Positions 32,201 to 59,200 of a stretch of 64,000 nt of DNA are shown here, piece by piece; within the stretch, counting starts at the first letter, position 1; each line of letters starts with the position of its first letter. Under the pieces are notes generated by a model, which was given only the letters and a program-made list of their open reading frames with translations, was not told the DNA's origin and made no database searches. Both the position numbers and the translations under genes were made by a program. Source of the DNA: Eimeria praecox (taxonomy: Eukaryota); NCBI GenBank assembly GCA_963920595.1, contig OY986950.1, positions 5,084,001-5,148,000 of the forward strand. The letters run 5' to 3'.

Positions 32201-35200
32201 CTTACGACGCAAGCTCTTCGCCTCCAAAGCGTTGCCATACCTTGGCGGCCGCTCGCAACCGCGTTTGTATCCTTGTGGGTCATTGCAGGGCGGCATGCTG
32301 CCACGTAATGCGGTGGAAATGAACTTTCATGAATCAGGAGGTAAGCGAATTTGGTAGATAACTTGCACAAGATATGAATGGAAGCCCCTATCAATACTTC
32401 TGGCTCCCGGCCTATGCAAGGGGAACAGGCGAAAATAGATAGTCGCACCTTGCACGCTAAAACTAAGCTGCAATGGTTTTATAATTGGGCTTTTCCTATG
32501 AACTGCTACGTCCGCGCTGTGGGAGGTGAAGCAGGCTGAGTGTGCTTCCATGACACCTCTACCGGATCGCCATATATCAGCAAGTATGATCAGCTTTTTG
32601 GCCAGCCAAGCGGGCAGCTGAAAGGCAGGTGCAATCCGTTGAGTTTCCAGACGATGTGCAAGATTATTGCAGCGTTCATGCCCTTTGGCCGGCTCTTTCA
32701 AGGGCTGCACTCACCCTTAGAGAATTCTTCCTTCATTCGTCGAAAGTGTAGATAGCAGACGTGCTCTTGGCAGTGTAATGGCGGCGCAAGTGCACTTTTT
32801 AACAGGCAGTGCGACTTTAACAAAGCCTGCAATGCTGCTGCCGTTGCACGGCTCAAGGAACTGCTTAACCATTCTTTCTCGCTCCCCAAACCGCTGCACA
32901 TACTTTTTCATTCAGGAGGACAAGTTTCTTAGCAGCTGTTTATGGGAGCGTTGCCAGGAAACGCAGATGAGCCGTCGCTGGATCCTGCGATTCGCAGTGA
33001 ATCGGGCATACTTGCAGGTGATCTGGGCGTGAAGGATTCCGAGGCGGATGCGCATTGTGAAGCCTTCACCGCGATGTGCATCAGCTAGTACGAGCGCAAT
33101 CATTGTGCCTTAGCATGCATGCGCCTGTTGTGCTTGCCGAGACACTTTAATCAGTTTCCCAGCCGAGGCGGAAAGCGGAAGCAGTGCTGTTACTACACCG
33201 GTGCAAACGCGCTACGGTTTTTGTTTACTATTAGTGTCCTGATAATGCATATAAATGAGCGCAACTTGTGGTTATTTTAAGACTGCAATACATTAGACAG
33301 TGAGCTGACTTCCACACTACCTATTTACACCTTGGTCCAGTTTTAGTTCGACGCATCCAGGCCTTCGCATACTTTTACAAAGGCGTCGAATCGCTTCTGC
33401 ATATAACCCAAGTAGTGGGTGCCTCCTAAGGAAAGCCAGCACTGAAACCCAACAACGCAGGCCACTTGCAGTGCTCGCCAAAGCAGAGCATTTGCGTGCA
33501 ATATAGAAAAGGAGCACTGTTGCACACTAGTACGTATGTTGGAGCCATTTTCCTCGTCCGTGGCAGAGAGGCACCTGAGAAACTAGCGGTGGCTGCTATT
33601 TTACCGAAGGCTCCGAGTCTAACAAGCTTTAAACGAGCATAGCGCATAACAAGCAAACCAATTCCTGCAGGAGTTTTAACTGAATATCTTGGGGAAGGGG
33701 AGCGCAGGACCATTCATGGAGAGGGCTGAGAAGTAAGACGATGCGAGGGCAGTGAAAGCATGTAATATATAAGCAAGTGAGCTTGGTATCTGGAATATGC
33801 CAACGACCGAAGGTTCAGACATCACATAAGTACTGGGCTTTTTTCTTCAGGCATACACCGATATTGATGCCTATATGTGCGAGGAGCGCTCTATTTCTTT
33901 TGCGTCAAGCAGAAACGGCATACAGCGTAAAATAATCGGATGACTGCCGGTCGTGTGCGTTTGTGGAGTGGCGTTCCCTGCAAAACCGTGTGGGCGACAG
34001 GGGACGAGAGACACGTGAAGTGGCAAACATCGGATGGTACGCAGAACTTTTTATATAGGTGAGCAGGCATCTTTTAAGGCACATCTAAGTGGATGGCGTT
34101 CCAGCTCGTATGTACATTCGTGCCTTCAGCAATAGAACCATGGGATAAGGGTGACCTGCAAAATGAATGCAGTTCTTTTTAGAACACGAAAACGCGATAC
34201 TTGGTTCTTGCAGGCGGCTGCTACTCCCATTAGAGTGCTGCTATGCTCGCTGACTAGCCGCCGCACCCAGTTTTTACAACCGTATATAGGCTAAATAGTG
34301 GTGAACAGGGGTACTATAGGGAGGAAAGGGTCTCATGTACAAGGCAGTACGACTGATCTCTTGAGTGTATGCACAAGGCACCTGGCAAACATTTCTTGCT
34401 GACCCAAATAATATTTAGAGCTTTGAGAAGCATCCGTTTGGTGGGCAGGCATATTTTAAATGCATAGGCCTGTATATAATTGGGCGCTCACAGATTCAGT
34501 TCCAGGCCATTTTCTTTAGAGGAATCCTGCCGGACATATGCTGAGAACATTTTTCCTTTTGTGGCCACGCAGTTGCAGCTGCGTTCAAGTGGTTCACTTT
34601 GGCATGCAATGCCTCGGTAGGCTGCAAAAGCTTTTGGCACTATGGACGATGCACGCATTAGGCAGTAAGCGCCAGTTGAACCGTAGGACGTTTGGACGCT
34701 TGGCAACACGAAAAACAATATGACCGCTGGCGAGTGTTGACAGCACATAGCGAAGTGAGGATGTTTGAGTGGTGCCGCAGGGCAGGCGAAAAGGATGCAG
34801 CTAACATGTTGCTCCTTTCAAGACACGCGTAACATTCACCCAGTAAATCCATTATATACCACGAACTAGGCAGTACGCTTGATCTATTGGTAGAGCAGTT
34901 GAGGAGTATGAATGAGGCAGCTGACATGTTTGCTTCTTTCCAGTTGCTAGTGTGAGAGCGTTTTGCTCGTTTGACAATGAGTGGCGCGCAGTTCGGCGCC
35001 TGCTGCCTTCTATCCTAGGTAGCGGCTATTTCTGCCAGCTTGGGAGTGTTTTACGTTCCGACAGGGTATGGCGTGTGAGTTTAGCGCACGATACGTGGAG
35101 CAGAAAGTGGGCTTGAACGCCAAACAGCCAAGGCGAACAGCCATGCAAAGTGCCTAGGATATACCACAGTTTTCAACGCAACCCTAGCTCCCGATCAAAC

Positions 35201-38200
35201 AGGTTGCAACTGCCACGCCTTTTGTTTGTTAAAAGCGCGTGTTCAACGGTGCCTTTGATTCCTAGCAGATGCTTTGTAACGCAAGGCCCGAGCGAATGCG
35301 GGCACAGAAAAATTCACCCTCATGAATCCTCCGAGTACTCTTAGGACGAGCACAAGCAATTCTTTGAGATAACTGGAGGAGGTTTTGCGATAGGCAGTAC
35401 GAAGGGCCTCTGGATCATGCACTCCAAGACTGCTTCATTAATGGGAGATGGAGCGGCGGTGTGAGCCCGGGAGGCCATTACTTTGTATTGCAGGAGCTTG
35501 ACTGCATGCTGTGAGCGCAAATGCACCTTTGCGTTTTCATGTTTACTCTTTCGTTTCCTAGAGACGCCACCCTATGATATTTCTCCCCTCGTTTTCTTTC
35601 ACTCTGTCGGGAACCTCTGGCACACGGATGCGGAGCCGCTGACACACGAAACGCCAATGCGCACCGTTGCTGTTCCATATCCACATACATCAGATGGTGC
35701 GTTTTATATTCATGCTTAATGGAAACGATTGTGCGAAAATAATGGCGGGTTTCTTGAGTTGTGCCCATAGTATGCTTGCATTCCCTCTCGCAACAAGGAG
35801 GGATATCGCATTGTTTCAAGAAAATGATCCTGGAGCGTCGACCGCAGTATGTCTGTTTGTGGGGGGTGCTCCATCTGGGTTCGGTACAGCAAGTGTGTAG
35901 CAAAGTGTCGCGGCTGCTCAGCACTGAGCAGAAATGCATGCTGGGGGCGTAAGAGGGTCAACTGACAAAACGCACGCCTGATGCATGGCATCAACAAACT
36001 GGCGCGCTTCTAGGAATACTGAAGAACTCCTCTATTTTTCAAATGCATTATGGTAGCGTTAAGCTGTGTTCAGCGTGGGAGAGAAAAGGATGCGCCGCGT
36101 TAAATGGCTGATGTTTGATTTCCAGTAGGGTAGGTGCGGGCAGCAGACGCATCGCTGATGGTTAATTCGAAACAATACTTCCCACGAAAGGAAGTATGGC
36201 AAAAACATAGTTGGAGTTTTACTTGTGTGCATGGTGTTCACGACGCGCACCCTTGAAGGATCTCGAAGGCTTCACTCTACTGGCACTTTATTACAAATGT
36301 TTACCTCCAGTGCCCTCAGTACGGGTTCGTCATTGTGCGCAAAGACAATGCTGTGATTCGGTTCCGAGGAGCTGGAAAGTAGAGTAGCTTTTCGGGATAC
36401 AGTCAGTTAGCTGTATCCTGCTTATTATTGTGGACGGATGGCATATGGATGAAGTGTTAGCTCTTGGCGTGGCGGAGATTCTATGAAATAGGCAGTACGA
36501 TTAGCCTGCCGGGTTTGTGTTCCTGCAGTGCCTTGCAATTAAGCCAAAGCCCCTTTGCATTTCGCTTCGCGCATCTCAGCTTACGTTTGCATACTGCATA
36601 CTGGTTTGTGTAGATTGGCAGTGAGTAAACAAAAGTGTTTCGGCATGTCGAAGAAAAGCCTTTCCAGTGAATTGTCTAGTAATAGCGCATGGTACAGGTT
36701 TATTTTGAAATGTGAACCAGTCTGGGCTACGTGGGTGAAGAGAATACATGCAGAAGAAGATTTCTGAATTCCCTTTCCCCAGGTAGTATGCTGGATGCTT
36801 AAGCCCTCGTGCAGGATTGTGTCAATCTAGATAGCTGTCAAAAAATACAAGCGGGAGCTAAGCCAGTATTGAAATGGTATCCCTTTGCCTCCAAGCCAGG
36901 GAGGTCCAACATGCCTTACCATGGTGTTCTAAGACACGCAGGATACCCTAGCCCCCGAGTGCCTCGGGCTTCTTCTTCAACAGTTGGAATGAGTGACCGA
37001 CGCAAACGGCAAACACGCACGGTGTATAGGGCTTCCGAATTGGAGCTTGGGAAATGCAGGCTGCGTCAAGCTGGAGCGCCTTCAAATCGTTGCTCTCCGT
37101 CAATAGGGCGGTTCCAACCCTTGCTGTTAATTGCAACTCTTATAACGGCTTCTTGCTTTAGAAAGGGCCTGATTAGCGAATTCGTAAGTAATACATGGAA
37201 ACCAGACTTTAGTAAAACTGAACGACTCTGCCATGCAACAGGACGTGCGCTCGGTTTCTAGCTTTCGGTATATGCGCCAGTGCTAGACTGCATGCTTCCA
37301 GCGAAGGGAGAAAACCAAGTGTGACCTACTGGAAGTAAAACTACTGCTTCCCTAGCCAGCGTCGATAGTTGTGTTTCAGGCCGTGCGCGTGATATACCCA
37401 ACTTAAATGAACTGCAGCTCGAATATGGAAAAATTGTTGTTTTCTCGTCAGCGTATGACTACACCGATGAAACGAACGGGTCGAAACGATCAAACTGCGG
37501 AAGTAAAATTGCTTTTGTTGAAACGGATACTGCGTCCCCGTTTGGTACAGGAAGTGTGTGGCAAAGCGGTGTGGCTGGTCAGCACTGCGCGGAGGTGAAT
37601 AGTAGGGATGCGAGAGTGTGATGCGCTAAAGTAGGCAGCTGAATTTTGAAACATTTAGCATAGCAGGCGTGTACAGCAACGGAAAGCTCATGTGGCCTTC
37701 AGTCACCATTTAGGCGGGGTGTGAGGCTGTTCAATATATGGAGTCAAGAGGCCGAGGAGACGAAGGGGCCGACGTCAATGTGAACACTGGCGATGCTCTT
37801 GCAGGAGGTACGCTATGGTGGGGAGCACCGCCGCGAAATGAATAGGAAAGCTACGCGCCGTCAGGTAGAGACATTACTCTACACTGTATTTGCAGTAATT
37901 TGTCGCTAGCTAAATGCTTGCCCAACTGAAAGGAAGAGGGGATGTAGATGTTCGCGATTTGGGAGTGAGCAATACGCTGTACGGCCAATATCTAGGCTGG
38001 TATAACCAGAAGGAAACCAAGAATCTGCAGGAGAGACGCGGCGCAGCGCAAATGCGTTCTAGGGTCCCTATGGGATATGAAAGTGCTGCAGCTAGGAAGC
38101 ATGCGCTGTTGCCAACTAGCTTTGCATTTCGCCGCGCTGAAAGGGACCGCCTTTGGAGGCAATTCGAGAATGTCCTTCTAGACTAAAATCGGATTACCCT

Positions 38201-41200
38201 CCTGTAGATAGAATGAAAGTGCCATTAGTGGCGACGGATGCTTTAGCTGCGGTGAACACCCGAACACCCGCTACAATGCCTTTTAGAAGTACTTGGAATC
38301 CCCTAAAAAATCGTGGACGCCTTGGTGAGTCAACCGGGGTCGCGGAAGCGCAAGATAGGACTAGGATTCAGCGGGTCATTCTTTTGGCAACTGGGCAATG
38401 CGTAGGTATTCCAAACGGTGGGCAAGGAACGAAGGTAGCGGCTTATTGCGACGGGTAAAAATGCATCAGGAAGTACGCCGTCGCATGGCAGGACTGTCAT
38501 TTTGAACGTGGCTTAGTATTTGGGAAAGTGTCTTCCTCCATGGCGTGCAGGAGCGAACCCGGGAGCACGAAAAGCGTGGGGCGCGGTTCTGGCTTGATAA
38601 ACGTGCTTTGGTATGTAGCGTAGTGGATCGTAGGCGAATCGGGCATTGCTCTCTGCTGCGCAGTAACTTATATTTCAATATGATACTCCATGCAATTATG
38701 CCGAGAAATCTGGAATCTCTGAATGCATGCAGCTGCTACTTGACCGTTGCAGAAACCATTGGGGAGCGCAGACGTTTTCTAAGGAAACAGGTATTCTGCC
38801 ATGTGTATCGCCTATACCACAACTAGGGCGTAACTATTAATCCGCCTTTTCGCTAGCAGGGCTAGTTAGACTGCCGCAACTGCGCTCCCAATGAGTGAAG
38901 GCGGGTGGTGTACTGGCGCGAGACGGGACTGCTGCCCTTCTGGCTCTATGGTTCGTTGTCAGGCGATATATGCGACGAATGGGTGTACACAACTACCGCG
39001 ACATCTCTTTAGACGATTCACATTCAAAGGCACATCAGTCCACAGCCAGTAATACGGTATATTGGATTGCTACTCCTTCCACCCCTTCAAGCTTACTCAA
39101 CAAATGTCTGACGGCGAGTGCGCATATGTTTGGAAATATTACGGCCTTTTGCTCTTCCCAGGCACTTGGAACGTGCGACGCGTGTGCCGTTTTACCTGGG
39201 CACGGTTTGACTTCACGCAACGATCCGTCGCTGATAGCGGGCCATCCAACACGAGCTTCGTTTTGTGAATGGGCCGCTTTATTAGCAGTTCAAAAGCAGG
39301 GGTACTTGCTCAGCAGAAATCTTTGTGGACTGAGCCGCTTGACTGGAGGTTCAATGGGGTGGATTTTCTTGCAACGATTGCACGCCAATGCAATGCATAC
39401 GCCAGGTGGAGTTGGAGCACACCACAAACACGACAGGCCCGCAGTGAATGCACTGTTGCATCGCTCAGTTAATGTGAAGGCGAGCTTTGAGGTTTTCAGC
39501 GTGATGCGTCTGGAATGGCAAGCGTCGGATTGTTCGAGGCCAAAGCGCACAAGCACGTGTGCTCTTGAATCATGATACAGTCCACCGCTCTGCGTTGCAG
39601 CTGCGCCCGTTGAGAACTGGTATTCGCCTCCGTTTGTAGAACCAGTAGAAACCAAAGCGACGTCCACGCGAGTGTGCGGTAGTTTGCTTGGGGCGTGTTC
39701 GCGTTGCTCACCGAAACGCTGAGGATTCCAGGGCGCGTCATGGAAATTGTGCCGACTTGAGCACGACGGTGGACCTTGCAGAAAAGCATTTGCAGCACAT
39801 GCTATTTTGGGCAATGCTGCACTGGCATGGGATCCTGTGAAGCAGATTGTTGAGGCTTTGCGACTATCTGTTTCGGGCAGATCAGGCCAGTGAGAAAAAA
39901 CGCCTAGAATGCACCCTGTGTGGCGCAGCCTTGTCGCACGTTCGAGAGAGGTTTTGCATGTACGTTTAGAGGTCTGTCTGAGTGTGCAGGCTGTGACACT
40001 TGAACAGCGGCTACCAAGGCTCGATTGTTGGGAAGGCATAATGCATTTGAAACATGGTTGTGGCTTGCTTGTATGGATGCTTATTTCTGCACGCTTGTGC
40101 GTCTGCGCGTGCATGTGCATACACCCTTGTATAGATGAATCCGACAGTTCACGGAGGCCGTTATCAACAGAAAGGAAAATCTACAGGCACAATGAGAAGG
40201 TGGCAGCCTCTCTAGCATGCGGACGGTTTTGTCATATTCACTTCCAGAGCGACCAGACTCTTCACCACGAACTGGGCTTCCTGCAGGAATGCCAAGGCTC
40301 TCAGTGTGCAAATTGCTGCTTGCGTTGGGCGCAGAGAGTACGTTGGGTCGACGTGTATGCAGCACCGCTGGTCGTGACAAAGCATTGTGCTCTCTTTTGA
40401 AGATTTAACAATTCTTAATCGCATCGACCACCGCATATGCTTCGATCTAACTGCTCCGCTAGTACTGGAAAGAAGCAAATTGCGTGGTTGCGCAAAAACC
40501 AGCCTAGACCAATGCGCATAAACAACCACCACGAGATGTCTTTAGACGATTCACATTCAAAGGCAGATCAGTCCACAGCCAGTTATACGGTATATTGGAT
40601 TGCTACTCCTTCCACCCCTTCAAGCTTACTCAACAAATGTCTGACGGCGAGTGCGCATATGCGTCATGTGCATGCGACGATAAATAGGAGGCCAAGAGGA
40701 TCCGCTGCGGGGGAAGCCTTGCTGTTCATCTAACGTTTGTGGGACGCCAAACCATGGGGCGAACGGTTTGCGCTCAACAGTCGGCTACACAATCGCAACA
40801 AAATGTGTAACGTTTAACGCACTGCTTCAGAGGCACGTGAAAGGCTGCGGTGAGAAAGGTTGCAGCCGTTAGTAGAGGGTGCCTTTGGCTTGAAGGGCTT
40901 ATGCAATGTGCAGCAGACACACCTTGTTAGCTGTCTGCAAGGGAGACAGAGTCTAGGCGTCTTATGAGGCAGATGCTGTGGCAGTGCCAACACTTACTGT
41001 ACGCGTACAAGACGAGAGCTGGCGCACCCTCCCTCGGTGCCGCTACCAGCCAGCTTTAATATTGCTCAGGCTCTGCTGCACTGATGTTTCGTACGTTTTT
41101 GTGCATTGTAGGACTGTCAATTTGTTGATTGCAGCAGCTGTGGTTTCTCTAAAAATTGCAGGAGCTTGGGGTGACGCAGAAGCTTGCATGTGCTTGCCCC

Positions 41201-44200
41201 AGGACGACGCGATGAAAAGCCACCCGGTTCAAAGCCTGTCGCTGGGCGCCCCTAAGTCGTTTATGTTACAGTGCCTCCGTTCGTGCCAGCATAGAGTTTT
41301 GAATAGCGGTATGCACAGCACGCACACCTGATAAGGTAGCATTCAATGCGCCAAACTTCATGCTGGAGGCATGTTAAGCCTGAAGAGCAAGCACTTCGAG
41401 TTGCTGGGGAGAGAAAGCCTCATTTTGGCAAGTAGGATGCCAAACCAACTGACATGGAGTTCAGGCAATACACCCTGCGGGCGTTTGTTTAGCAGCGTGT
41501 ACGATGCCTCCCCTTTTATGCAGCATCAAAGACATTTAGGGGGCACCGTAAGCATTGTGGACGTGCGAGCATTCGGGCAGGCGCGAGCTGGCGCTGCTCA
41601 GATATCTCCGGCCTGGTGGGCGGCATGCCAAGCAAGCTGTGCACTCTAGGCGTGCCCATCTCTAAGCGCCCAATCGAAACACTGTATGCGCAGCTAAGTT
41701 TGTCCTGAGTTACGCTACCCCAACAGCGCTTCATTATGGCAGCATTCTCCAAAGCAAGTACGGGCCTATATCATGCCTGGGCGAGTTGAACTGGCCAGTC
41801 AGTTTACGCCGGTACTACACCAAGGTCCGCATTGAATATGCATAACTGTCTGTTCAACCACTGGAAAGACCAGTTGCGCCTACCGTAAACGCTTTTGGTT
41901 TGGGAGTATGATTTGCCTGGATTGGCAAGCGTCGGATTCTCCGAGTCCAGAGTGTACGCGCACATGCGCCTTTGTTGCATGAGGTGGTCCTCCATTGCCG
42001 AATACCCTGCGTTGCAGTTGCAGTCATCGAGGCTTGGGTGTTCGCCCCTGTGTGTAGGACCAGCGAAAACCGCAAAGACGTGCACGCCGTTGTGCGCTGA
42101 TCTGCTTGTGGGCGCGTTTGCGTCGCTCAACGTTTGGCTGTGGATTCCAGGGCTCGCGATGGGAATTGTGCTGACTTGAGCACGGCAGTAGATCTCACAG
42201 GGTAGCAGATTGAGCGCGTGCTATTCTAAATGAAGTTGCAGTGGAATTTGTAAGCCGTGTGCGCTACTGATAAGCGAGTGAGTGTCAGTATGCTGGCATC
42301 TGTGCATCACCAGGGCAGGTGCAGTGACGTGCACCCAACAGTAATTGCCATGCAGGTACCTTTTTCTTCGGCACACGCACTATTACCAGAGCTTCGCTAA
42401 AACCATGCACGTCTATCGGAAGCTGGAAGTCTGCACAGTAGGCTCGAGCTTCGTACCACTGTCCCTCGACAGAACACAGGATGGTCTAAACGCCGATTTA
42501 TTGGAAGGCCGTGATTGGGCAGTCACATGCTGACTTGCTGCAATTGCAGTGGTTCTAAAGCTTCTTAGAAAGGAGTGGAATGGGTTCCAGATGGTTCGCA
42601 TATGCTTGCAGGCGCTTTGGAAGCTTTGCAGTGGACATAGGACTAAATCTGCAGGATAGTGGAAGCCTTGAATACGTGCTTCGAGGATAGCATAGCTGCC
42701 GTTAGATGCCTCGTTTTGGCTTGTATGGATCGTAGAGTTGGGCTGTGGAATTGGCGATCGACACGATGAGTTGTCCTCAACCATTGTAGTTTTCAATGCT
42801 ACATTAGGCTGTGCATGAATCTCTAGAGATACCTAAGACGGAATTTAGTCCTGCAGAATGGACCACAGCAGGAAGCGCGCACTGCCGTTTCGATTGCTGG
42901 ACACGGTCAGCACGTTTAGAGGACACCAGGTGCTGCGTGGTGGATACGGTTCCAGCAGGGTAGTGGATTGCCTGCAAGGACGGCTGGCAGTATGGAAGCA
43001 CATGACCAACTTCAAACAGCGCCCGGCTTCCCTGAGAGTAGCGTTGGTCCTCTAGCAGTGCCAAAACGTCCCGCCCGTAAAGGAATTCAATGTGTAGATA
43101 GATGTGACCAATTTCTCGGTGCATGCTTGGCCGTTTCGGAGCTCCGTGTTCTGTAGCACCACTGCTTGGAAGTATTACGGCCTTTTGCTTTTCCCAGGCA
43201 CTTGGAACGTGCGACGCGTGTGCCGTTTTACCTGGGCACGGTTTGACTTCACGCAACGACCCGTCGCTGATAGCGGGCCATCCAACACGAGCTTCGTTTT
43301 GTGAATGGGCCGCTTTATTAGCAGTTCAAAAGCAGGGGTACTTGCTCAGCAGAAATCTTTGTGGACTGAGCCGCTTGACTGGAGGTTCAATGGGGTGGAT
43401 TTTCTTGCAACGATTGCACGCCAATGCAATGCATACGCCAGGTGGAGTTGGAGCACACCACAAACACGACAGGCCCGCAGTGAATGCACTGTTGCATCGC
43501 TCAGTTAATGTGAAGGCGAGCTTTGAGGTTTTCAGCGTGATGCGTCTGGAATGGCAAGCGTCGGATTGTTCGAGGCCAAAGCGCACAAGCACGTGTGCTC
43601 TTGAATCATGATACAGTCCACCGCTCTGCGTTGCAGCTGCGCCCGTTGAGAACTGGTATTCGCCTCCGTTTGTAGAACCAGTAGAAACCAAAGCGACGTC
43701 CACGCGAGTGTGCGGTAGTTTGCTTGGGGCGTGTTCGCGTTGCTCACCGAAACGCTGAGGATTCCAGGGCGCGTCATGGAAATTGTGCCGACTTGAGCAC
43801 GACGGTGGACCTTGCAGAAAAGCATTTGCAGCACATGCTATTTTGGGCAATGCTGCACTGGCATGGGATCCTGTGAAGCAGATTGTTGAGGCTTTGCGAC
43901 TATCTGTTTCGGGCAGATCAGGCCAGTGAGAAAAAACGCCTAGAATGCACCCTGTGTGGCGCAGCCTTGTCGCACGTTCGAGAGAGGTTTTGCATGTACG
44001 TTTAGAGGTCTGTCTGAGTGTGCAGGCTGTGACACTTGAACAGCGGCTACCAAGGCTCGATTGTTGGGAAGGCATAATGCATTTGAAACATGGTTGTGGC
44101 TTGCTTGTATGGATGCTTATTTCTGCACGCTTGTGCGTCTGCGCGTGCATGTGCATACACCCTTGTATAGATGAATCCGACAGTTCACGGAGGCCGTTAT

Positions 44201-47200
44201 CAACAGAAAGGAAAATCTACAGGCACAATGAGAAGGTGGCAGCCTCTCTAGCATGCGGACGGTTTTGTCATATTCACTTCCAGAGCGACCAGACTCTTCA
44301 CCACGAACTGGGCTTCCTGCAGGAATGCCAAGGCTCTCAGTGTGCAAATTGCTGCTTGCGTTGGGCGCAGAGAGTACGTTGGGTCGACGTGTATGCAGCA
44401 CCGCTGGTCGTGACAAAGCATTGTGCTCTCTTTTGAAGATTTAACAATTCTTAATCGCATCGACCACCGCATATGCTTCGATCTAACTGCTCCGCTAGTA
44501 CTGGAAAGAAGCAAATTGCGTGGTTGCGCAAAAACCAGCCTAGACCAATGCGCATAAACAACCACCACGAGATGTCTTTAGACGATTCACATTCAAAGGC
44601 AGATCAGTCCACAGCCAGTTATACGGTATATTGGATTGCTACTCCTTCCACCCCTTCAAGCTTACTCAACAAATGTCTGACGGCGAGTGCGCATATGCGT
44701 CATGTGCATGCGACGATAAATAGGAGGCCAAGAGGATCCGCTGCGGGGGAAGCCTTGCTGTTCATCTAACGTTTGTGGGACGCCAAACCATGGGGCGAAC
44801 GGTTTGCGCTCAACAGTCGGCTACACAATCGCAACAAAATGTGTAACGTTTAACGCACTGCTTCAGAGGCACGTGAAAGGCTGCGGTGAGAAAGGTTGCA
44901 GCCGTTAGTAGAGGGTGCCTTTGGCTTGAAGGGCTTATGCAATGTGCAGCAGACACACCTTGTTAGCTGTCTGCAAGGGAGACAGAGTCTAGCCGTCTTA
45001 TGAGGCAGATGCTGTGGCAGTGCCAACACTTACTGTACGCGTACAAGACGAGAGCTGGCGCACCCTCCCTCGGTGCCGCTACCAGCCAGCTTTAATATTG
45101 CTCAGGCTCTGCTGCACTGATGTTTCGTACGTTTTTGTGCATTGTAGGACTGTCAATTTGTTGATTGCAGCAGCTGTGGTTTCTCTAAAAATTGCAGGAG
45201 CTTGGGGTGACGCAGAAGCTTGCATGTGCTTGCCCCAGGACGACGCGATGAAAAGCCACCCGGTTCAAAGCCTGTCGCTGGGCGCCCCTAAGTCGTTTAT
45301 GTTACAGTGCCTCCGTTCGTGCCAGCATAGAGTTTTGAATAGCGGTATGCACAGCACGCACACCTGATAAGGTAGCATTCAATGCGCCAAACTTCATGCT
45401 GGAGGCATGTTAAGCCTGAAGAGCAAGCACTTCGAGTTGCTGGGGAGAGAAAGCCTCATTTTGGCAAGTAGGATGCCAAACCAACTGACATGGAGTTCAG
45501 GCAATACACCCTGCGGGCGTTTGTTTAGCAGCGTGTACGATGCCTCCCCTTTTATGCAGCATCAAAGACATTTAGGGGGCACCGTAAGCATTGTGGACGT
45601 GCGAGCATTCGGGCAGGCGCGAGCTGGCGCTGCTCAGATATCTCCGGCCTGGTGGGCGGCATGCCAAGCAAGCTGTGCACTCTAGGCGTGCCCATCTCTA
45701 AGCGCCCAATCGAAACACTGTATGCGCAGCTAAGTTTGTCCTGAGTTACGCTACCCCAACAGCGCTTCATTATGGCAGCATTTTCAATAGCCTGTGCGTG
45801 CCTTTATCAAGGCTGGGCGGGTTGAACTGGCCAGTCAGTTTACGCCGGTACTACACCAAGGTCCGCATTGAATATGCATAACTGTCTGTTCAACCACTGG
45901 AAAGACCAGTTGCGCCTACCGTAAACGCTTTTGGTTTTGGAGTATGATTTGCCTGGATTGGCAAGCGTCGGATTCTCCGAGTCCAGAGTGTACGCGCACA
46001 TGCGCCTTTGCTGCATGAGGTGGTCCTCCATTGCCGAATACCCTGCGTTGCAGTTGCAGTCATCGAGGCTTGGGTGTTCGCCCCTGTGTGTAGGACCAGC
46101 GAAAACCGCAAAGACGTGCACGCCGTTGTGCACTAGTCTGCTTGTGGGCGCGTTTGCGTCGCTCAACGTTTGGCTGTGGATTCCAGGGCTCGCGATGGGA
46201 ATTGTGCTGACTTGCGCACGGCAGTAGGCCTCGCAGAAAGGCATCTGCAACACAGCTATATTTTAGCTTCACTTGCGTTCACATAGGTTCCCTTGTTTGG
46301 AGTGTTGAAGGCGAGTAGTTGTTAGTGTTATACGTGCACGTAGAGCGTTATGGGGAGCAAATGGTGTCCAAGTCAGCCCTGTTGCATCTGCGCTTCTCTC
46401 CTTCGAAAGCCCGAGAAGCACGATGTGTGCATGCACGGTGTGCAGGCGTGTAGAAGGCTTTCTTTCTTCAATGAAGACTTTGCTTGGACGGCTCTGGCGC
46501 ACGACGGGGAGCCACGTGAAACGCGTAGTTGTGAACAACAGAGGAATTCTGTTGGCCTAACCGTTCGGCTCATGAGAGAGCACGAAGTTTGTGGGTAGTT
46601 TTACTGCACGGGGAAGCTGTAGTGGCAGTCCGTTCCCTTGTGCTCGAAGTCGTTTTGCATTATTTAGACAAGTAAGCAGGCAGGAAGCGCAACCGACCTA
46701 CTGATGTTCTGTACTATGTAGAAAAGGCAAACCTGAAGGCCGCCACAGTACGTGTGGTCGCTGACCATCGTTCAGGCTAAGACGTTGAGACAGGCGGCGC
46801 ATGGCATGCTTGTGTTCGAGACAGTCAGAGATGGGAATACAGAATTGCAGCACGACTTGCTAGGGACATCATTTCATAGTGGTAGAGAAGTAGCTGACGT
46901 GTCTACTAGTTCGTGAGCGCAGATGGAAAGCCTCTGCCTTGACTGAAACACATGCATTACAGTTGCAGCGCATAGCCAGGCAGGTCTCTACCTGTCATGC
47001 TTCTCAGCAGCGCTGAGCGCTGCTGAGAAGCATGACAGGCCTACCATGAGGTTGCACAGGCAGCGTAAGGGTGGTGTAGGTGTTGTGAGAAGATTGGACC
47101 CTGAGGGCGGCGCTCGCAAGCGCGTAGAGACGTGGACGTCGGCGCATTTGTTTTGGGGTACCGCAGCTGTGGTTAGCAAATTCTTTCTCCTTTGTGAGCG

Positions 47201-50200
47201 TGAGCGCAAACATTATCAAGGCAAGGATTCCATGTTTGCAAGGCACCAGAAGATCACCGGCTTCCGTACAGGAGGCTGTGCCAAACGTAATGCTTGCTTT
47301 GAAGGAGGGGATGGCTGAATATGAGGGTGGGTTGGGGGCCGTTCCATCATGAACCAGAATGCTGAGTTTTTGCGACTATCTGTTTCGGGCATATCAGATC
47401 AGGGCCAAACGGCTTCCTAGACTGCGCGTTGTGTGATGCAGTGTCTTGTCAAGTTGGAATGAGGTTATGCCTATATTTTTAGAGGTAGGTCTGAGTGTGC
47501 ATGCCTTGACACTTGAGCAGCGACTATGACGGCTCGTTTGTTTGGCTGGCAAGATGCATTCGAAGTGCCACGGTGAGTTGTTTGTTCGGTTGTATGCGGC
47601 GTTTGTCATTGGGTCTGCGTGGGTGTGTGCATGCATCCGTGTTTAGCTTAATCACATAGTTTAGGCACCTACCTACTACTGGCGAAAGGCACAGCGTGAG
47701 GATAAGGGCCTCTTTAGCATGTGGTCGGGCTTGCCGCATTGACGACCAGGGCAGCCTTTATCGTCCCTACGAAATTGGCTGCTTGCAAGGATGTGAAGAC
47801 TCCTGCTTGGCGTGTCCTTGCGTGAGGGCGGCACAGGGTGTACGATGGCTAGAGGCGTCTGCATCATCATTGGTCTATGGAAAGCACAACGTTCTGCTGT
47901 AGAACATTTCAGACTTAGCAGTCGTGCTGTGAACGTCATGCGCTGCGTGTTAGAAGCCATGCTTTGCTAGCAAAAGCGAGACCACAATGCTGCGTGGTTA
48001 GGTTGGAAAAGCGCATAGATGACAAAGCCGAAACAGCCAACCAGCATCAAATATTGTTATCTCTTGGCGATCCATGACCAGCGAGATGCAGGTCTAGAGC
48101 AAGCAGCATCGTGCATGGCCTTGCTACTACTCTGAGGTGATACATCGACTACGTTCCAGCGAGTGCGCTGATATGTGTTGCGTCTTTTGTGTGTCCAGCA
48201 TAAGGATGTCTAGGGGCTTAGTCGCCGGAAACGCGATGTTGTTTGTAGCGCTTTTGAGAGAACCGAACCCCGGATGCCTATAACGTACGCTGAGTGTTGC
48301 TCGCCACCACAGCAGTAAAAGGACTGGCGTTACAAGACGCCATGCTTCAGGCACACGTGAAAGTGCTGAATGAAGGAGGTTGAAGCTGGTGGTTGAGGGC
48401 GCCTGTACCTGGGAGGGCATGCGCAGACGCGTGTCAAACGCACGGCTCTGGCAGCCTCCATCGAAGCTGGAGTCCTCGAGGCGTGTGCGGTTGTTAACAT
48501 GGCAGTGGCAAAAGTATATCCTACAGTGGATGGCCGGTAGTAGAGCTGTTTTGCCTGGGTCTCGCTACGGGCGATGCTCGATATGGCCTTTTGTACCAGT
48601 TGAACGGATGCTTGGTAGGTTATTAATTGGTTGTAAGCAGGACGCCATCCTGGTGTTGCAGGTGCAGTTTGTCTACCTACGCTGCTGCATAAGCGTGATA
48701 TGAGGTGCACGTGTTATTGCCCGTTTCACCCAAGGTTAGAAGAGAAACCCAGGAGGGTAAAGGGCTGTTGCTAAGCGCCCTTAGCGGGGGTAAGCTGGAG
48801 AGCCTAGGTTCCTCTTTGCATAGAGATTTGCTTATCTGAAGGCGAAAGCGAAACGGGGCCAGATAGTAGAATGGCCTTCTAGCCGGCCTATTGCATGCTG
48901 GAGATGCGCGTGGCGCGCATGGCGAATAGTTAGTGTTGCTGGAGAGAGACGGCCTCTTTTTGGCAAGTAGGATGCCGAACCAACTGATATGGAGTTCAGG
49001 CAATACACCCTGCGGGCGTTTGGTTGGCAGAGTGTACGGTGCCTCGCCTTATACGCAGCATCACAGGCATTTAGGGGGCACCGTAAGCAGTTTGGAGGTG
49101 CAGGCATTCAGGCAGGCGCGAGCTGGCGCTGCTCAGATATCTCCGGCCTGGTGGGCGGCATGCCAAGCAAGCTGTGCACTCTAGGCGTGCCCATCTCTAA
49201 GCGCCCAATCGAAACACTGTATGCGCAGCTAAGTTTGTCCTGAGTTACGCTACCCCAACAGCGCTTCATTATGGCAGCATTCTCCAAAGCAAGTACGGGT
49301 CTATATCATGCCTGGGCGGGTTGAACTGGCCAGTCAGTTTACACCGGTACTACACCAAGGTCCGCATTGAATATGCATAACTGTCTGTTCAACCACTGGA
49401 AAGACCAGTTGCGCCTACCGTAAACGCTTTTGGTTTTGGAGTATGATTTGCCTGGATTGGCAAGCGTCGGATGCTCCGAGTCCAGAGTGTACGCGCACAT
49501 GCGCCTTTGTTGCATGAGGTGGTCCTCCATTGCCGAATACCCTGCGTTGCAGTTGCAGTCATCGAGGCTTGGGTGTTCGCCCCTGTGTGTAGGACCAGCG
49601 AAAACCGCAAAGACGTGCACGCCGTTGTGCACTAGTCTGCTTGTGGGCGCGTTTGCGTCGCTCAACGTTTGGCTGTGGATTCCAGGGCTCGCGATGGGAA
49701 TTGTGCTGACTTGCGCACGGCAGTAGGCCTCGCAGAAAGGCATCTGCAACACAGCTATATTTTAGCTTCACTTGCGTTCACATAGGTTCCCTTGTTTGGA
49801 GTGTTGAAGGCGAGTAGTTGTTAGTGTTATGCGTGCACGTAGAGCGTTATGGGGAGCAAATGGTGTCCAAGTCAGCCCTGTTGCATCTGCGCTTCTCTCC
49901 TTCGAAAGCCCGAGAAGCACGATGTGTGCATGCACGGTGTGCAGGCGTGTAGAAGGCTTTCTTTCTTCAATGAAGACTTTGCTTGGACGGCTCTGGCGCA
50001 CGACGGGGAGCCACGTGAAACGCGTAGTTGTGAACAACAGAGGAATTCTGTTGGCCTAACCGTTCGGCTCATGAGAGAGCACGAAGTTTGTGGGGAGTTT
50101 TACTGCACGGGGAAGCTGTTGTGGCAGTCCGTTCCCTTGTGCTCGAAGTCGTTTTGCATTATTTAGACAAGTAAGCAGGCAGGAAGCGCAACCGACCTAC

Positions 50201-53200
50201 TGACCTTAATAATGTTCTGTACTATGTAGAAAAGGCAAACCTGAGGGCCGCCACAGTACGTGTGGTCGCTGACCATCGTTCAGGCTATGGCGTTGACACA
50301 GGCGGCGCATGGCATGCTTGTGTTCGAGAGAGTCAGAGACAGGATTATAGAGCTTCAGAATGACTTGTTAGGGATTTCATTTATAGACGTACAAAGGTGT
50401 GTGGCTTGCCTACTAGTTAGTGCGTGCAGACGAGAAGCCTCTGCCTTGACTGAAACACATGCATTACAGTTGCAGCGCATAGCCAGGCAGGTCTCTACCT
50501 GTCATGCTTCTCAGCAGCGCTGAGCGCTGCTGAGAAGCATGACAGGCCTACCATGAGGTTGCACAGGCAGCGTAAGGGTGGTGTAGGTGTTGTGAGAAGA
50601 TTGGACCCTGAGGGCGGCGCTCGCAAGCGCGTAGAGACGTGGACGTCGGCGCATTTGTTTTGGGGTACCGCAGCTGTGGTTAGCAAATTCTTTCTCCTTT
50701 GTGAGCGTGAGCGCAAACATTATCAAGGCAAGGATTCCATGTTTGCAAGGCACCAGAAGATCACCGGCTTCCGTACAGGAGGCTGTGCCAAACGTAATGC
50801 TTGCTTTGAAGGAGGGGATGGCTGAATATGAGGGTGGGTTGGGGGCCGTTCCATCATGAACCAGAATGCTGAGTTTTTGCGACTATCTGTTTCGGGCATA
50901 TCAGATCAGGGCCAAACGGCTTCCTAGACTGCGCGTTGTGTGATGCAGTGTCTTGTCAAGTTGGAATGAGGTTATGCCTATATTTTTAGAGGTAGGTCTG
51001 AGTGTGCATGCCTTGACACTTGAGCAGCGACTATGCCGGCTCGTTTGTTTGGCTAGCAAGTTTCATTTGAAGTGCCACGGTGAGTTGTTTGTTCGGTTGT
51101 CTGCGGCTTTGTTGATGGGTCTGTGCGTGTATGCGTGTATGGCTGAATCATACAGTTCAGGCAGGCGGTTATTAACGGCAAAACGCACAGTGTGAGGATA
51201 AGGGCCTCTTTAGCATGTGGTCGGGTTTGCCGCATTGGCTGGCAGGTCAGCCAGGTTCTTTACTGAGCAATCGACAGCTCAAAAGATTGCAAATCCGTGC
51301 TTTGTGCCAGTTACTGCGTGTGTGTGGGCCAGACAGTACGATGAATAGAGGGGTGTGCACCCTCAATGATATTGACAAAGCACTATGGCCGGCCGCAAAT
51401 TTTGGAGATTTCGTACTCGCCTCGTGGGGGCCATTCGAAGCGTCTTTGCATGCAAGCCACGCGGGTGATACTTGGGAGCACCAAAGTGCGTGTTTGCATT
51501 CAGCAGAGCTTAGCGAACGCCGTCACGACACCTAGGCAGCACCTACCGTTGTTATCCTTAGGCGACGCACAACCAGAGATTCATTTGCAGCAAGGAACAT
51601 CGTGCTTTGCATTGATAGTCCCCGCTACGTTCCAGGAAGTGCGATGCTATATCCTGCATTTGCATCCAGACGAAAAACGCATAGGTTCTTGGGCGCCTGA
51701 GACGCGATATTAATTGCGGAATTCTCTGGCGAGACCAAACCAGAAGGCCCATAAGGTACGCTGAGTGTTGCTCGCCACCATTGCAATAAAAGGACTGACG
51801 TTGCAAGACACCGTGCTTCAGAGGTACGTGAAAGTGCTGAATGATAGAGGTTGTAGCTGATGGTTGAGGGCGCCTTTACCTTGGAGGACATGCGCGGTTG
51901 TGTGGGGGAAGCAGGCCAATGGCAGTGCGCAACGAATTTGCAGCCTTGGCGGAGTATGGGGTAGCTGGTGAAGGCGTCAATACAATACAATCATACGACA
52001 GTGGAAGGCCGGCTGTGGAGCTGTTTTGCATGCCTCTGGCTAAGGGCCACGCTCGATGTGGCTTTTTGTGCCGGATGAACTGACGCTTGGTAGATTATTA
52101 ATTGGCTGTAAGCATGGCGCCATGCTGGTGTTGCAGGTGTGGTTTGTCTACCTACGCTGCTGCATAAGCGTGGAATGATCTGCGCGTGCTAACGCGCTTT
52201 CCGCCGAGCAGCAGGGCATAATGGCACCGCGAGGCACTCCGGAGAGAGCATATCCGTTATATGTGTATAGCGTTTTGAATAGCAGATAGCAAACACAAGT
52301 AAAAGATCAACGGTGGAGTAGATTTCTCTGCGGCATGTTGGATGCAAGGGATACACTAGTGTGGCGCGGAGGGGCGAAACCGATATATTGGAGAGAGCAG
52401 GCCCTTTTGTGGGACGTAGAGAGTCGAAGGATCTGACATTAGGTACACACCCTACAAGGGCCACGATTTTCTGGAGCAGAGCGTACGATGCGTCGTCATG
52501 TATGCAGCATCGTTGTCCAGTTCAAGGCATCCACCTCAGCAGAGACGCTGGAGAGTCAATCTCTATCATGCCCATACTAACCCATGCGTTGCATTCGAAC
52601 GTTAGTATAGGTAGCTTTGAAGCGCAGCGTGATGCGTGTGGAAGTTGAATATAGGTTATGGAATCGTGTTTGGACAGGCGGTGCATGCCATGCTTGTTTT
52701 CGGGTGTTGCCGGCATAGGATTGTACAGCATGCGCTACTCGGGCCGTTCCATGCGCAGCGCCAAAGTAGCTAGCTTGCCTGCTAGCTAGTCTGCGCCGAC
52801 AAAGCGCATCCGTCTTCAGCATAGCTAATGCCTTACTGTTGCACGTAATAAGCCAGTGCTGCTTCTTCTTTAGGTCTATCTGTGTGGCGAACAACGGCAG
52901 GCGTGGTGTACCGTGAGGTTCAGCATGCTGCATAAGGGTGCTTTAGGTGTTGTGAGGAGATTCGACCCTGCAGGCGGCGCTGGCAAGGGCCCGCAGACGT
53001 GGACGTCGGTGCATTTGTTTTGGGGTACCGCAGCTGTGGCTATCAAGTTTTTTCTCCTTTGTGAGCGTGAGCGCAAACATTATCACGGCAAGTATGCCAT
53101 GTTTGCGAGGCACGAGAAGATCACGGGTGCCCGTAGGGTGTCCGTAGAGTAGGCTGTGCCAAACGTATTGCTTGCTTTGAAGGAGGGGATGGCTGAATAT

Positions 53201-56200: not shown

Positions 56201-59200
56201 TGTGTAGGCGACACCGTCAAAGCATGGAGGCATAACAAAAAGGTGTTGTCGTTAGGCAATTCGCGAACAACCAGAAATTATCTTAAAGCCACTAATGCAC
56301 TGCGCTGGTTTCTCACTCTTCTGATGCGCCACATCGACTACGTTTCAGGCAGTGCGCAGACACCTCCGAGGCTGTTTCCAGACGAACGATGTCAAGGTTC
56401 TTGGGCGCGGGAGACGCGATATTAATTGCGGCATTCTCTGGCGAGACCAAGCCAGAAGGCCCATAAGGTACGCTGAGTGTTGCTCGCCACCATTGCAATA
56501 AAAGGACTGACATTACAAGACACCGTGCTTCAGAGGTACGTGAAAGTGCTGAATGATAGAGGTTGCAGCTGATGGTTGAGGGCGCCTTTACCTTGGAGGA
56601 CATTCTCGGTTGTGTGGGGGAAGCAGGCCAGTGGCAGTGCGCAACGAATTTGCAGCCTTGGCGGAGTATGGGGTAGTTGGTGAAAGCGTCAATACAGTAC
56701 GGGCATACGACAGTGGACGGCCCGTAGTGGAGCTGTTTTGCATGCCTCTGGCTAAGGGCCACGCTCGATGTGGCTTTTTGTGCCGGATAAACTGACGCTT
56801 GGTAGATTATTAATTGGCTGTAAGCATGGCGCCATGCTGGTTTTGCAGGTGTGGTTTGTCTACCTACGCTGCTGCATAAGCGTGGAATGATCTGCGCGTG
56901 CTAACGCGCTTTCCGCCGAGCAGCAGGGCATAATGGCACCGCGAGGCACTGATGGAAAAGCATATCCGTTATGTGTGTATAGCGTTTTGAATAGCAGATA
57001 GCAAACACAAGTAAAAGATCAACGGTGGAGTAGATTTCTCTGCGGCATGTTGGATGCAAGGGATACAGTAGTGTGGCGCGGAGGGGCGAAACCGATATAT
57101 TGGAGAGAGCAGGCCCTTTTGTGGGACGTAGAGAGTCGAAGGATCTGACATTAGGTACACACCCTACAAGGGCCACGATTGTCTGGAGCAGAGCGTACGA
57201 TGCGTCGTCATGTATGCAGCATCGTTGTCCAGTTCAAGGCATCCAACTCAGCAGAGACGCTGGAGAGTCAATCTCTATCATGCCCATACTAACCCATGCG
57301 TTGCATTCGAACTTTAGTATAGGTAGCTTTGAAGCGCAGCGTGATGCGTGTGGAAGTTGAATATAGGTTGTGGAATCGTGTTTGGACAGGCGGTGCATGC
57401 CATGCTTGTTTTCGGGTGTTGCCGGCATAGGATTGTACAGCATGCGCTACTCGGGCCGTTCCATGCGCAGCGCCAAAGTAGCTAGCTTGCCTGCTAGCTA
57501 GTCTGCGCCGACAAAGCGCATCCGTCTTCAGCATAGCTAATGCCTTACTGTTGCACGTAATAAGCCAGTGCTGCTTCTTCTTTAGGTCTATCTGTGTGGC
57601 GAACAACGGCAGGCGTGGTGTACCGTGAGGTTCAGCATGCTGCATAAGGGTGCTTTAGGTGTTGTGAGGAGATTCGACCCTGCAGGCGGCGCTGGCAAGG
57701 GCCCGCAGACGTGGACGTCGGTGCATTTGTTTTGGGGTACCGCAGCTGTGGCTATCAAGGTTTTTCTCCTTTGTGAGCGTGAGCGCAAACATTATCACGG
57801 CAAGTATGCCATGTTTGCGAGGCACGAGAAGATCACGGGTGCCCGTAGGGTGTCCGTAGAGTAGGCTGTGCCAAACGTATTGTTTGCTTTGAAGGAGGGG
57901 ATGGCTGAATATGAGAGTGGGGTGTAGGCAATTCTGTCATGAAGCAGGATGCTGAGGTTTTGCGACTATCGGTTTCGGGAATACGAGATCAGGGCAAAAC
58001 AGCTTCCTAGACTGCGCGTTGTGTGATGCAGTGTCTTGTCAAGTTGGAATGAGGTTATGCCTATTTTTTTAGAGGTAGGTCTGAGTGTGCATGCCTTGAT
58101 ACTTGAGCAGCGACTATGACGGCTCGTTTGTTTGGCTAGCCAGATGCATTTGAAGCGCCATGGTGAGTTGTTTGTTCGGTTGTATGAGACGTTTGTTGAT
58201 GGGTCTGTGTGTGGGCGTGCATGTATCCTTGTATAGCTCAATTACGCAGTTCAGGCAGGTGGTTGTAAATCGCAAAAGGCACAGTGTGAAGACAGCGGCC
58301 TGTCTGGCATGTGGTCGAGTTTGCCGCATTGGCTGGCAGGTCAGCCAGGTTCTTCACTAAGCAATGGACAGCTCAGAAGATTGTAAATCCGCGCCGTATG
58401 CAAATGATTGGCTGCGTGTGTGGCGTAGACAGTACGATGGCTAGAGGCGTGCTCAACCTCATTGATATTGACAAAGCATTATGGTTTGCCGTAAATTGTG
58501 GTGATTTCGTATTCGCCTCGTTAGGCCCATCCGAAGCGTCCTAGGAGGCAAGCTTCGCGGGCGTTATTCGGGAGCACTAAAGTGCGTATTTGCATTCAGC
58601 AGAGCCTAATGGACACCTTCACAACACGCAGGAATCACTAAACGGTGTTAACATTGGGCGATTCACGATCAAACAAAAACTAGGTTACAGCCAGGAACGC
58701 AGTTCACCGCATTGGTACTGCCGTTACGCAGCAAATTGACTGCGTTCCAGCGAGTGAGCAGGCACATCCTACCGCTGCTTCGGGACGGACGACGTCATGT
58801 ATGACAAGGGCCTTTCTGCCGGTTGAACTGATGTTTGGAAGATTATTAATTGGCTGTAAGCATGGCGCCATGCTGGTTTTGCAGGTGTGGTTTGTCTACC
58901 TACGCTGCTGCATAAGCGTGGAATGATCTGCGCGTGCTAACGCGCTTTCCGCCGAGCAGCAGGGCATAATGGCACCGCGAGGCACTGATGGAAAAGCATA
59001 TCCGTTATGTGTGTATAGCGTTTTGAATAGCAGATAGCAAACACAAGTAAAAGATCAACGGTGGAGTAGATTTCTCTGCGGCATGTTGGATGCAAGGGAT
59101 ACAGTAGTGTGGCGCGGAGGGGCGAAACCGATATATTGAAGAGAGCAGGCCCTTTTGTGGGACGTAGAGAGTCGAAGGATCTGACATTAGGTACACACCC

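Follow-up and report, generated by a model that had tools for sequence, protein, structure and literature searches.

Predicted one-codon exons in the window

The window, i.e., the whole 64-kb stretch of Eimeria praecox DNA analysed here, has a GC content of ~50% and features a six-fold excess of the hexamer GCATGC (94 occurrences vs. 15.6 expected), two properties that may be likened to those of coccidian parasites. About 100 single-codon exons are predicted over these 64 kb on the plus strand, separated by predicted introns of ~150–1200 bases which are mostly unique, and neither the start nor the end of a gene was identified within the window. The motif AG-NNN-GTRCG occurs 85 times in the 64 kb, compared to 17.3 ± 4.6 times in shuffled sequences, with 84 matches on the plus strand and a single one on the minus strand. 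When considering only the non-repetitive part, 50 matches were counted vs. 4.8 ± 2.2 expected. Likewise, when good acceptors are paired with good donors, a peak appears solely at an exon length of 3 nt, with 56 pairs vs. 0–5 at other lengths up to 45 nt and 0–4 on the minus strand. The existence of 3-nt exons, which the preliminary description of this locus had taken as its premise, is thus backed by a real signal at the population level, consisting of the motif excess, the strand bias and the peak restricted to 3 nt.

A splice model trained outside the tandem array placed 100 of 422 AG-NNN-GT sites of the plus strand above 3 bits as opposed to 1 of 184 on the minus strand, its scores being partly circular for the training region. 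The base preceding AG in the 67 training sites is C in 45, T in 15 and A in 7 cases, and AG is nearly absent 4–14 bases upstream of the training exons (5 occurrences), which leaves an AG-poor zone in front of them. None of 63 stricter sites starts with T, and Ala, Glu, Arg, Leu and Thr occur with synonymous codons; the lack of T-initial triplets and the synonymous codon use thus favour phase 0. In the array, four exon families were aligned, among which AG/GT differ in 2.8% of the pairwise comparisons, codons in 42% and flanks in 38%, whereby the figure for AG/GT conservation is biased by the recognition of these families via the motif. Judged from the DNA sequence, the region likely encodes a protein with one amino acid per exon.

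On the plus strand, predicted single-codon exons form a dense, non-repetitive chain over 19348–38472, with a median exon spacing of 265 bases in 19348–24217. Codons for Ala, Glu, Arg and Lys abound in this chain, a composition which suggests a helical low-complexity protein. Besides, AG is located exactly 17 bases upstream of 15 of the 67 training exons (19300–38500) vs. ~4 at adjacent positions. An in-frame alternative acceptor or a branch-site feature may account for this AG at -17. A convincing long coding exon was sought in the window and not found, the longest frame comprising 296 codons. Long open frames on either strand were rejected as coding since indels of 10 and 11 bases between units break them. 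Rfam yielded no matches, and neither did the comparison with plasmids. At the left end of the window, positions 1–8294 are occupied by a tandem repeat with a period of 3991 and 99.7% identity, featuring ~6 exon candidates per unit and few internal differences, which lie off the exons.

The mosaic tandem array

From 38974 to 64000, the plus strand carries a mosaic tandem array with units of 2.0–4.0 kb and ~2–5 predicted 3-nt exons per unit, the blocks of which differ in their age of exchange. Within this array, 43163–46236 is a recent duplicate of 39127–42200, and the pair differs at 25 of 3074 bases; 10 of these sites lie inside the short patch described below. A part of the duplicate, 45612–46236, is near-identical in three units (also 41576–42200 and 49111–49735), with a fourth copy indicated by the depth in sequencing run X2 (2405 vs. 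~600 per copy). Just outside this homogenised block, the units differ by 38% (45236–45435 vs. 48735–48934) and 44% (46237–46436 vs. 42201–42400), and between those outer stretches the divergence changes stepwise over 12%, 0%, <1% and 7%. The 45 kb copy is a chimera: to the left of 45612 it resembles the 41 kb unit, and to the right of 46131 the 49 kb unit. Its switch interval of ~520 bases, which belongs to a near-identical stretch of 3.7 kb, contains the patch.

Further features of the array concern the exon content of its units. In the exon homologues at 40648, 44684, 52786, 57498 and 59534, the acceptor is lost (GG instead of AG) or the donor is weak (GTCTG), so that units likely differ in exon number. 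At 58794–58813, a deletion of ~0.4 kb inside a unit is joined to a 98.4% copy of 56777–58463. In addition, ~48660–48712 and its homologues (52136, 54537, 56848, 58885, 61280, 63671) feature a conserved strong acceptor and a short open stretch with a stop after ~13 codons. Possibly, this family represents a terminal exon; the array would then be a series of small genes instead of one gene.

The diverged patch and its predicted exon

The patch, hereafter version B, covers 45783–45812 on the plus strand; in it, a triplet is preceded by 8 bases of the predicted upstream intron and followed by 19 of the predicted downstream one. The counterpart, version A, is found at 41747–41776, with a second copy at 49282–49311 (29/30 identical), both on the plus strand. 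Version B differs from the former at 10 of 30 bases (2 transitions and 8 transversions) and from the latter at 11 of 30, in each case ungapped, which corresponds to a divergence of 33–37%. The preliminary description had reported 10 differing positions between 45781–45816 and 41745–41780 as well as a near-identical counterpart of the latter at ~49280. Both statements proved accurate, with 26/36 positions matching in the first comparison, 25/36 between 45781–45816 and 49280–49315, and 35/36 between the two copies of version A.

The flanks of the patch are >99% identical (0–0.9% differences), so that a dense ungapped tract lies in near-identical surroundings, as would be expected of a short-tract gene conversion event. 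Over 2483 bases to the left, a single difference separates the 45 kb copy from the 41 kb copy, and over 171 bases none separates it from the 49 kb copy; the counts on the right side are 3 in 318 bases and 6 in 891, respectively. At the background rate, a cluster of 10 differences in 30 bases has a probability of ~4e-12.

The triplet at 45791–45793 (plus strand) is a predicted 3-nt exon with a Pro codon (CCT), a TAG acceptor and a GTGCG donor, reaching 4.4 bits in the splice model, a score attained by only 1 of 184 AG-NNN-GT sites of the minus strand. The version A counterparts score -1.4 bits (41755–41757, Gln codon, weak AAG acceptor) and -0.5 bits (49290–49292). Ranked among the 67 training exons, the AAG acceptor of version A falls at the 7th percentile and the TAG acceptor of version B at the 39th, the donors being similar; AAG acceptors are nevertheless present in the chain (7 of 67). 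The 10 changes of the patch spare AG, GT and CG of the micro-exon motif (chance ~0.10), and AG-NNN-GTRCG persists in both versions, as had been claimed.

The change from Gln to Pro put forward earlier stands as far as the codons are concerned. A swap of the residues themselves is unproven, as the weak acceptor of the Gln version might lead to the gain or loss of a residue instead. For the predicted exon, a replacement of Gln by Pro and an alternation between skipping and Pro are both possible. A possible upstream CAG acceptor at 45776–45778 (plus strand), common to versions A and B, would yield a 15-nt exon that is open in A and interrupted by an in-frame stop in B. Exons of 15 nt show no enrichment in the window, and this acceptor, 12 bases upstream, is a minor alternative. 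The further statement that the patch replaces exactly one micro-exon is correct in that one predicted 3-nt exon is covered; still, it is partly automatic, since the predicted introns on either side are 256 and 193 bases long and account for 27 of the patch's 30 bases. The centring alone is notable (p ~0.04, post hoc), a segment of 30 bases placed at random in the duplicated block containing one of its 5 exon candidates with a probability of 0.04.

A homology of the patch exon to the TTC/TTA/ATA/TTT exon of other units was considered and rejected. MAFFT aligned the two, and the profile of these units gave no match at 45.6–46.0 kb. As this pairing is positional only, it was not used for polarising versions A and B.

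Evidence from sequencing runs

Four public runs (X1–X4) contain the region, none of which is recorded as RNA. X2, which stems from the same sample as X3, is possibly the source data of the assembly, so that it excludes a consensus error but does not represent a second strain. In X2, an unbranched contig of 89 bases over 45754–45842 has no differences to the window and a depth of 599, which lies in the range of single-copy contigs (587–614). The contig of version A reaches a depth of 1460 (1483 expected) and the shared left flank 2405. These depths fit four copies of the shared block, one with version B and three with version A. Since the window holds three, one copy must be located outside the window or be collapsed in it. 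The single-copy depth and complete agreement of the version B contig show that B is not a consensus error. The patch thus withstands the objection raised in advance, namely that reads might expose it as an error, and the diverged stretch of 30 bases is a real sequence variant.

The contigs of X1, X3 and X4 display version A only. Contigs drop minority bubbles and are thus silent on the absence of B; that B can be lost from them is evident from X3, which was derived from the same sample as X2. The depth of 192.7 in X1 is compatible with B being present (190–197) as well as absent (195–208). Judged from the contig depths of X1 and X2 over 45490–46874, the shared block should occur a fourth time, and additional array units should exist, beyond the window.

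Origin of the patch

A difference of 33% cannot accumulate in 30 bases with flanks being 99% alike, thus either the patch was imported or homogenisation acted on the flanks that surround it. Ectopic exchange of some kind, as proposed before, is therefore needed, and both routes named at that time, the import by conversion and the tract that escaped homogenisation, are still to be weighed. Most likely, the patch is a leftover of ordinary DNA exchange between repeats and not the product of a targeted editing system.

The search for a donor of the variant, which had been recommended as a check, gave none within the 64-kb window by blastn-short, an ungapped scan, nhmmer and an exon-anchored comparison. 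The longest exact match to the patch elsewhere in the window comprises 11 bases, and the best exon-anchored match 20/30. An intact identical donor, as a conversion event would leave it, is hence lacking in the window, and the patch is not classed as a proven import. Metagenome contigs contained no match to a 25-base piece of the patch. A 21-base motif of the flank matched three metagenome contigs, all of them unrelated (58–60% GC, alike over 21–24 bases only). From the X2 data we infer that an exact 30-base donor elsewhere is improbable, because a second identical 30-mer should break a contig built with k=31. As the patch spans exactly 30 bases, one later mutation or a difference at its ends would hide a donor from this contig test.

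The best reading, held at about even odds, is that the patch represents the remnant of an older, ~35% diverged unit lineage caught between two exchange junctions. Two old unit lineages, the 41 kb type and the 49 kb type, would have merged over a block of 625 bases, and the 45 kb copy would have arisen as a chimera of both. If one exchange junction fell immediately to the left of the triplet and a second one immediately to its right, this copy alone would retain 30 bases of the displaced lineage. Unequal exchange and gene conversion would have equalised the DNA on both sides of the patch among neighbouring units. The predicted consequence is a better acceptor with a Pro codon, compared to a weak acceptor with a Gln codon in the other three copies, whereby a residue would be swapped or added. 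Such a remnant is supported by the divergence of the patch (33–37%), which resembles the 38–44% of the unhomogenised unit flanks, and by its position inside the switch interval of the chimeric copy. Moreover, two junctions 30 bases apart in a merged block require no outside donor. The same reading is weakened by the occurrence of version A in three of four copies, as simple counting makes B the newcomer, and by the sharp edges of the patch (0 differences in 171 bases to the left). In a low-confidence alignment with a distant homologue at 39.4 kb, 4 of the 10 sites agree with A, 2 with B and 4 with neither, so that both versions look old. Since the flanks of the displaced lineage are not preserved, the history cannot be polarised. 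Selection may help to retain the patch, although it is not required.

A short-tract import is a tentative alternative of somewhat lower probability. Here, a break near the triplet would have been repaired with ~30 bases of a diverged paralogous unit or allele that has since been mutated, overwritten or lost. This agrees with the ungapped tract and its sharp edges, which reached a likelihood of 0.009–0.037 for mean tracts of 30–50 bases in a toy simulation with assumed parameters, the scope of which was a single import and an island protected by selection. Mosaic VSG genes of Trypanosoma brucei provide a precedent (PMC13233330). Small transfers with a visible donor occur in the array as well, since the cluster of 3 differences at 60233–60235 has a matching haplotype at 47602. 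The array also continues beyond the window, in which one of the four copies is missing. However, the window holds no donor and the X2 contig is unbranched and single-copy, the mismatch of 33–37% exceeds the ~20% of the trypanosome case, and an import leaves the position of the patch within the switch interval of the chimera unexplained.

A more far-reaching proposal appears doubtful. It assumes a giant gene of >100 one-codon exons in which short tracts would swap cassettes of exon and splice sites and thereby diversify the protein at the DNA level, residue by residue, with selection keeping exon-centred tracts; the patch would then be one event caught whole. The mapping of conversion tracts relative to exon positions, likewise recommended earlier, did not bear out such a targeting. 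A systematic scan of the array revealed four isolated short difference clusters, and only 45783–45812 covers a 3-nt exon candidate. The cluster at 48264–48290 places 4 differences over a possible 12-base exon, and those at 52239–52261 (7 differences) and 58197–58199 (3 differences, with a matching array haplotype) fall off exon candidates. These four clusters and one further cluster at a block edge are too few, thus exon targeting cannot be shown.

Less probable still is a divergence peak maintained by selection, in which conversion equalises the introns while tracts running over the codon and its splice sites are purged. The centring of the patch on an exon candidate (p ~0.04, post hoc), the contrast between AG/GT and the codons and flanks of the four exon families (2.8% vs. 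42% and 38%) as well as theory and the human red/green opsin case (PMC3924837) speak in its favour. An island at equilibrium should, however, have tails, and the toy model produced the sharp profile at 0.0001–0.010 only; besides, the other short clusters fall off exons. It is very unlikely that clustered mutation or local template switching generated the 10 changes in situ: the failure to find a donor would fit, but the changes are scattered and ungapped, spare AG, GT and CG, and have neither an inverted nor a direct local template, the longest match within 200 bases being 6–7 bases. An assembly or consensus error, for which the presence of B in one of four runs might be quoted, can practically be dismissed as X2 carries B at single-copy depth and the depths sum up to one B and three A.

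Comparison with known systems and significance

By analogy, the patch may work like interlocus gene conversion among tandem duplicates, for which divergence peaks were described with the human red/green opsin genes as a case (Fawcett and Innan, 2011; PMC3924837). Near-identical paralogues, a narrow and highly diverged stretch over a (here predicted) exon and stepwise strata of identity recur in the present locus. In contrast, the stretch found here measures 30 bases, surrounds a predicted 3-base exon and lacks tails, and selection on it is hypothetical.

The VSG mosaics of T. brucei contain templated insertions with a median of 29 bp, ~9 bp of junction identity and a tolerance of ~20% mismatch, and depend on RAD51 (PMC13233330). 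They resemble the present case in tract size (29 bp vs. 30), in the ungapped nature of the patch and in the use of diverged paralogous sequence. There, the donor stays intact and tracts lie in continuous coding sequence, whereas here no donor was found, 27/30 bases belong to predicted introns and the mismatch is higher. Furthermore, a role facing the host is not known for the E. praecox region.

With regard to the exons, the closest parallels come from a truffle and from schistosomes. The nank (NACHT-ankyrin) genes of Tuber melanosporum feature arrays of microexons that are the size of a codon (Iotti et al., 2012, as cited in PMC4986451). A series of one-codon exons, i.e., serial 3-nt exons with canonical splice signals, is equally predicted here. 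Diversification of nank was reported to result from alternative splicing inside a gene for a multidomain receptor; in the E. praecox locus, the variation is found at the DNA level, and ~100 predicted one-codon exons are spread over 64 kb in which neither a long coding exon nor a domain is apparent. The micro-exon genes (MEGs) of Schistosoma have a signal peptide and comprise 10–20 exons, mostly of 15 bp (6–81 bp, in the extreme case 3) (PMC10526429, PMC4015677, PMC4350168). They share a coding sequence that consists mostly of tiny symmetric exons between long introns, but differ from the ~100 candidates described here, nearly all of which have 3 nt. The term conversion does not appear in the accessible text of two of these papers (PMC10526429, PMC4350168). 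In the literature covered, which mostly excludes subscription journals, no report was found on chains of one-codon exons in apicomplexans. Within the same incomplete coverage, this applies also to the conversion of a single micro-exon, the exchange of one-codon exons at the DNA level and a chain of this length.

Taken alone, the patch is what exchange between tandem repeats ordinarily produces, and the interest lies in the gene architecture; the chain of about 100 exons is more unusual than the patch itself. With one codon per exon, ~99% of such a gene would be intron, and introns would provide all the homology for recombination. An exchange of 30 bases could thus add, drop or replace one residue without a risk for the reading frame. 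If transcripts confirm the chain, this one-codon-per-exon gene would be far longer than the arrays found described and, moreover, invisible to standard annotation. It would then also offer a clean system to ask whether conversion tracts persist preferentially over exons.

Further short difference clusters

Additional short diverged patches in the array are present at 56951–56973 (7 differences) and 58229–58273 (~11 differences), both of which contain no 3-nt exon candidate. Between 48264–48290 and 60886–60912, the four differences remove the AG before the possible 12-base exon, with flanks being near-identical. Candidates for 12-base exons also occur at ~51746, 54147 and 56458. At 58423–58430, three differences lie around the predicted exon at 58429, which has a Thr vs. 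an Arg codon, between units that are otherwise 98% identical; this cluster is situated at the edge of a shared block and was left uncounted in the scan.
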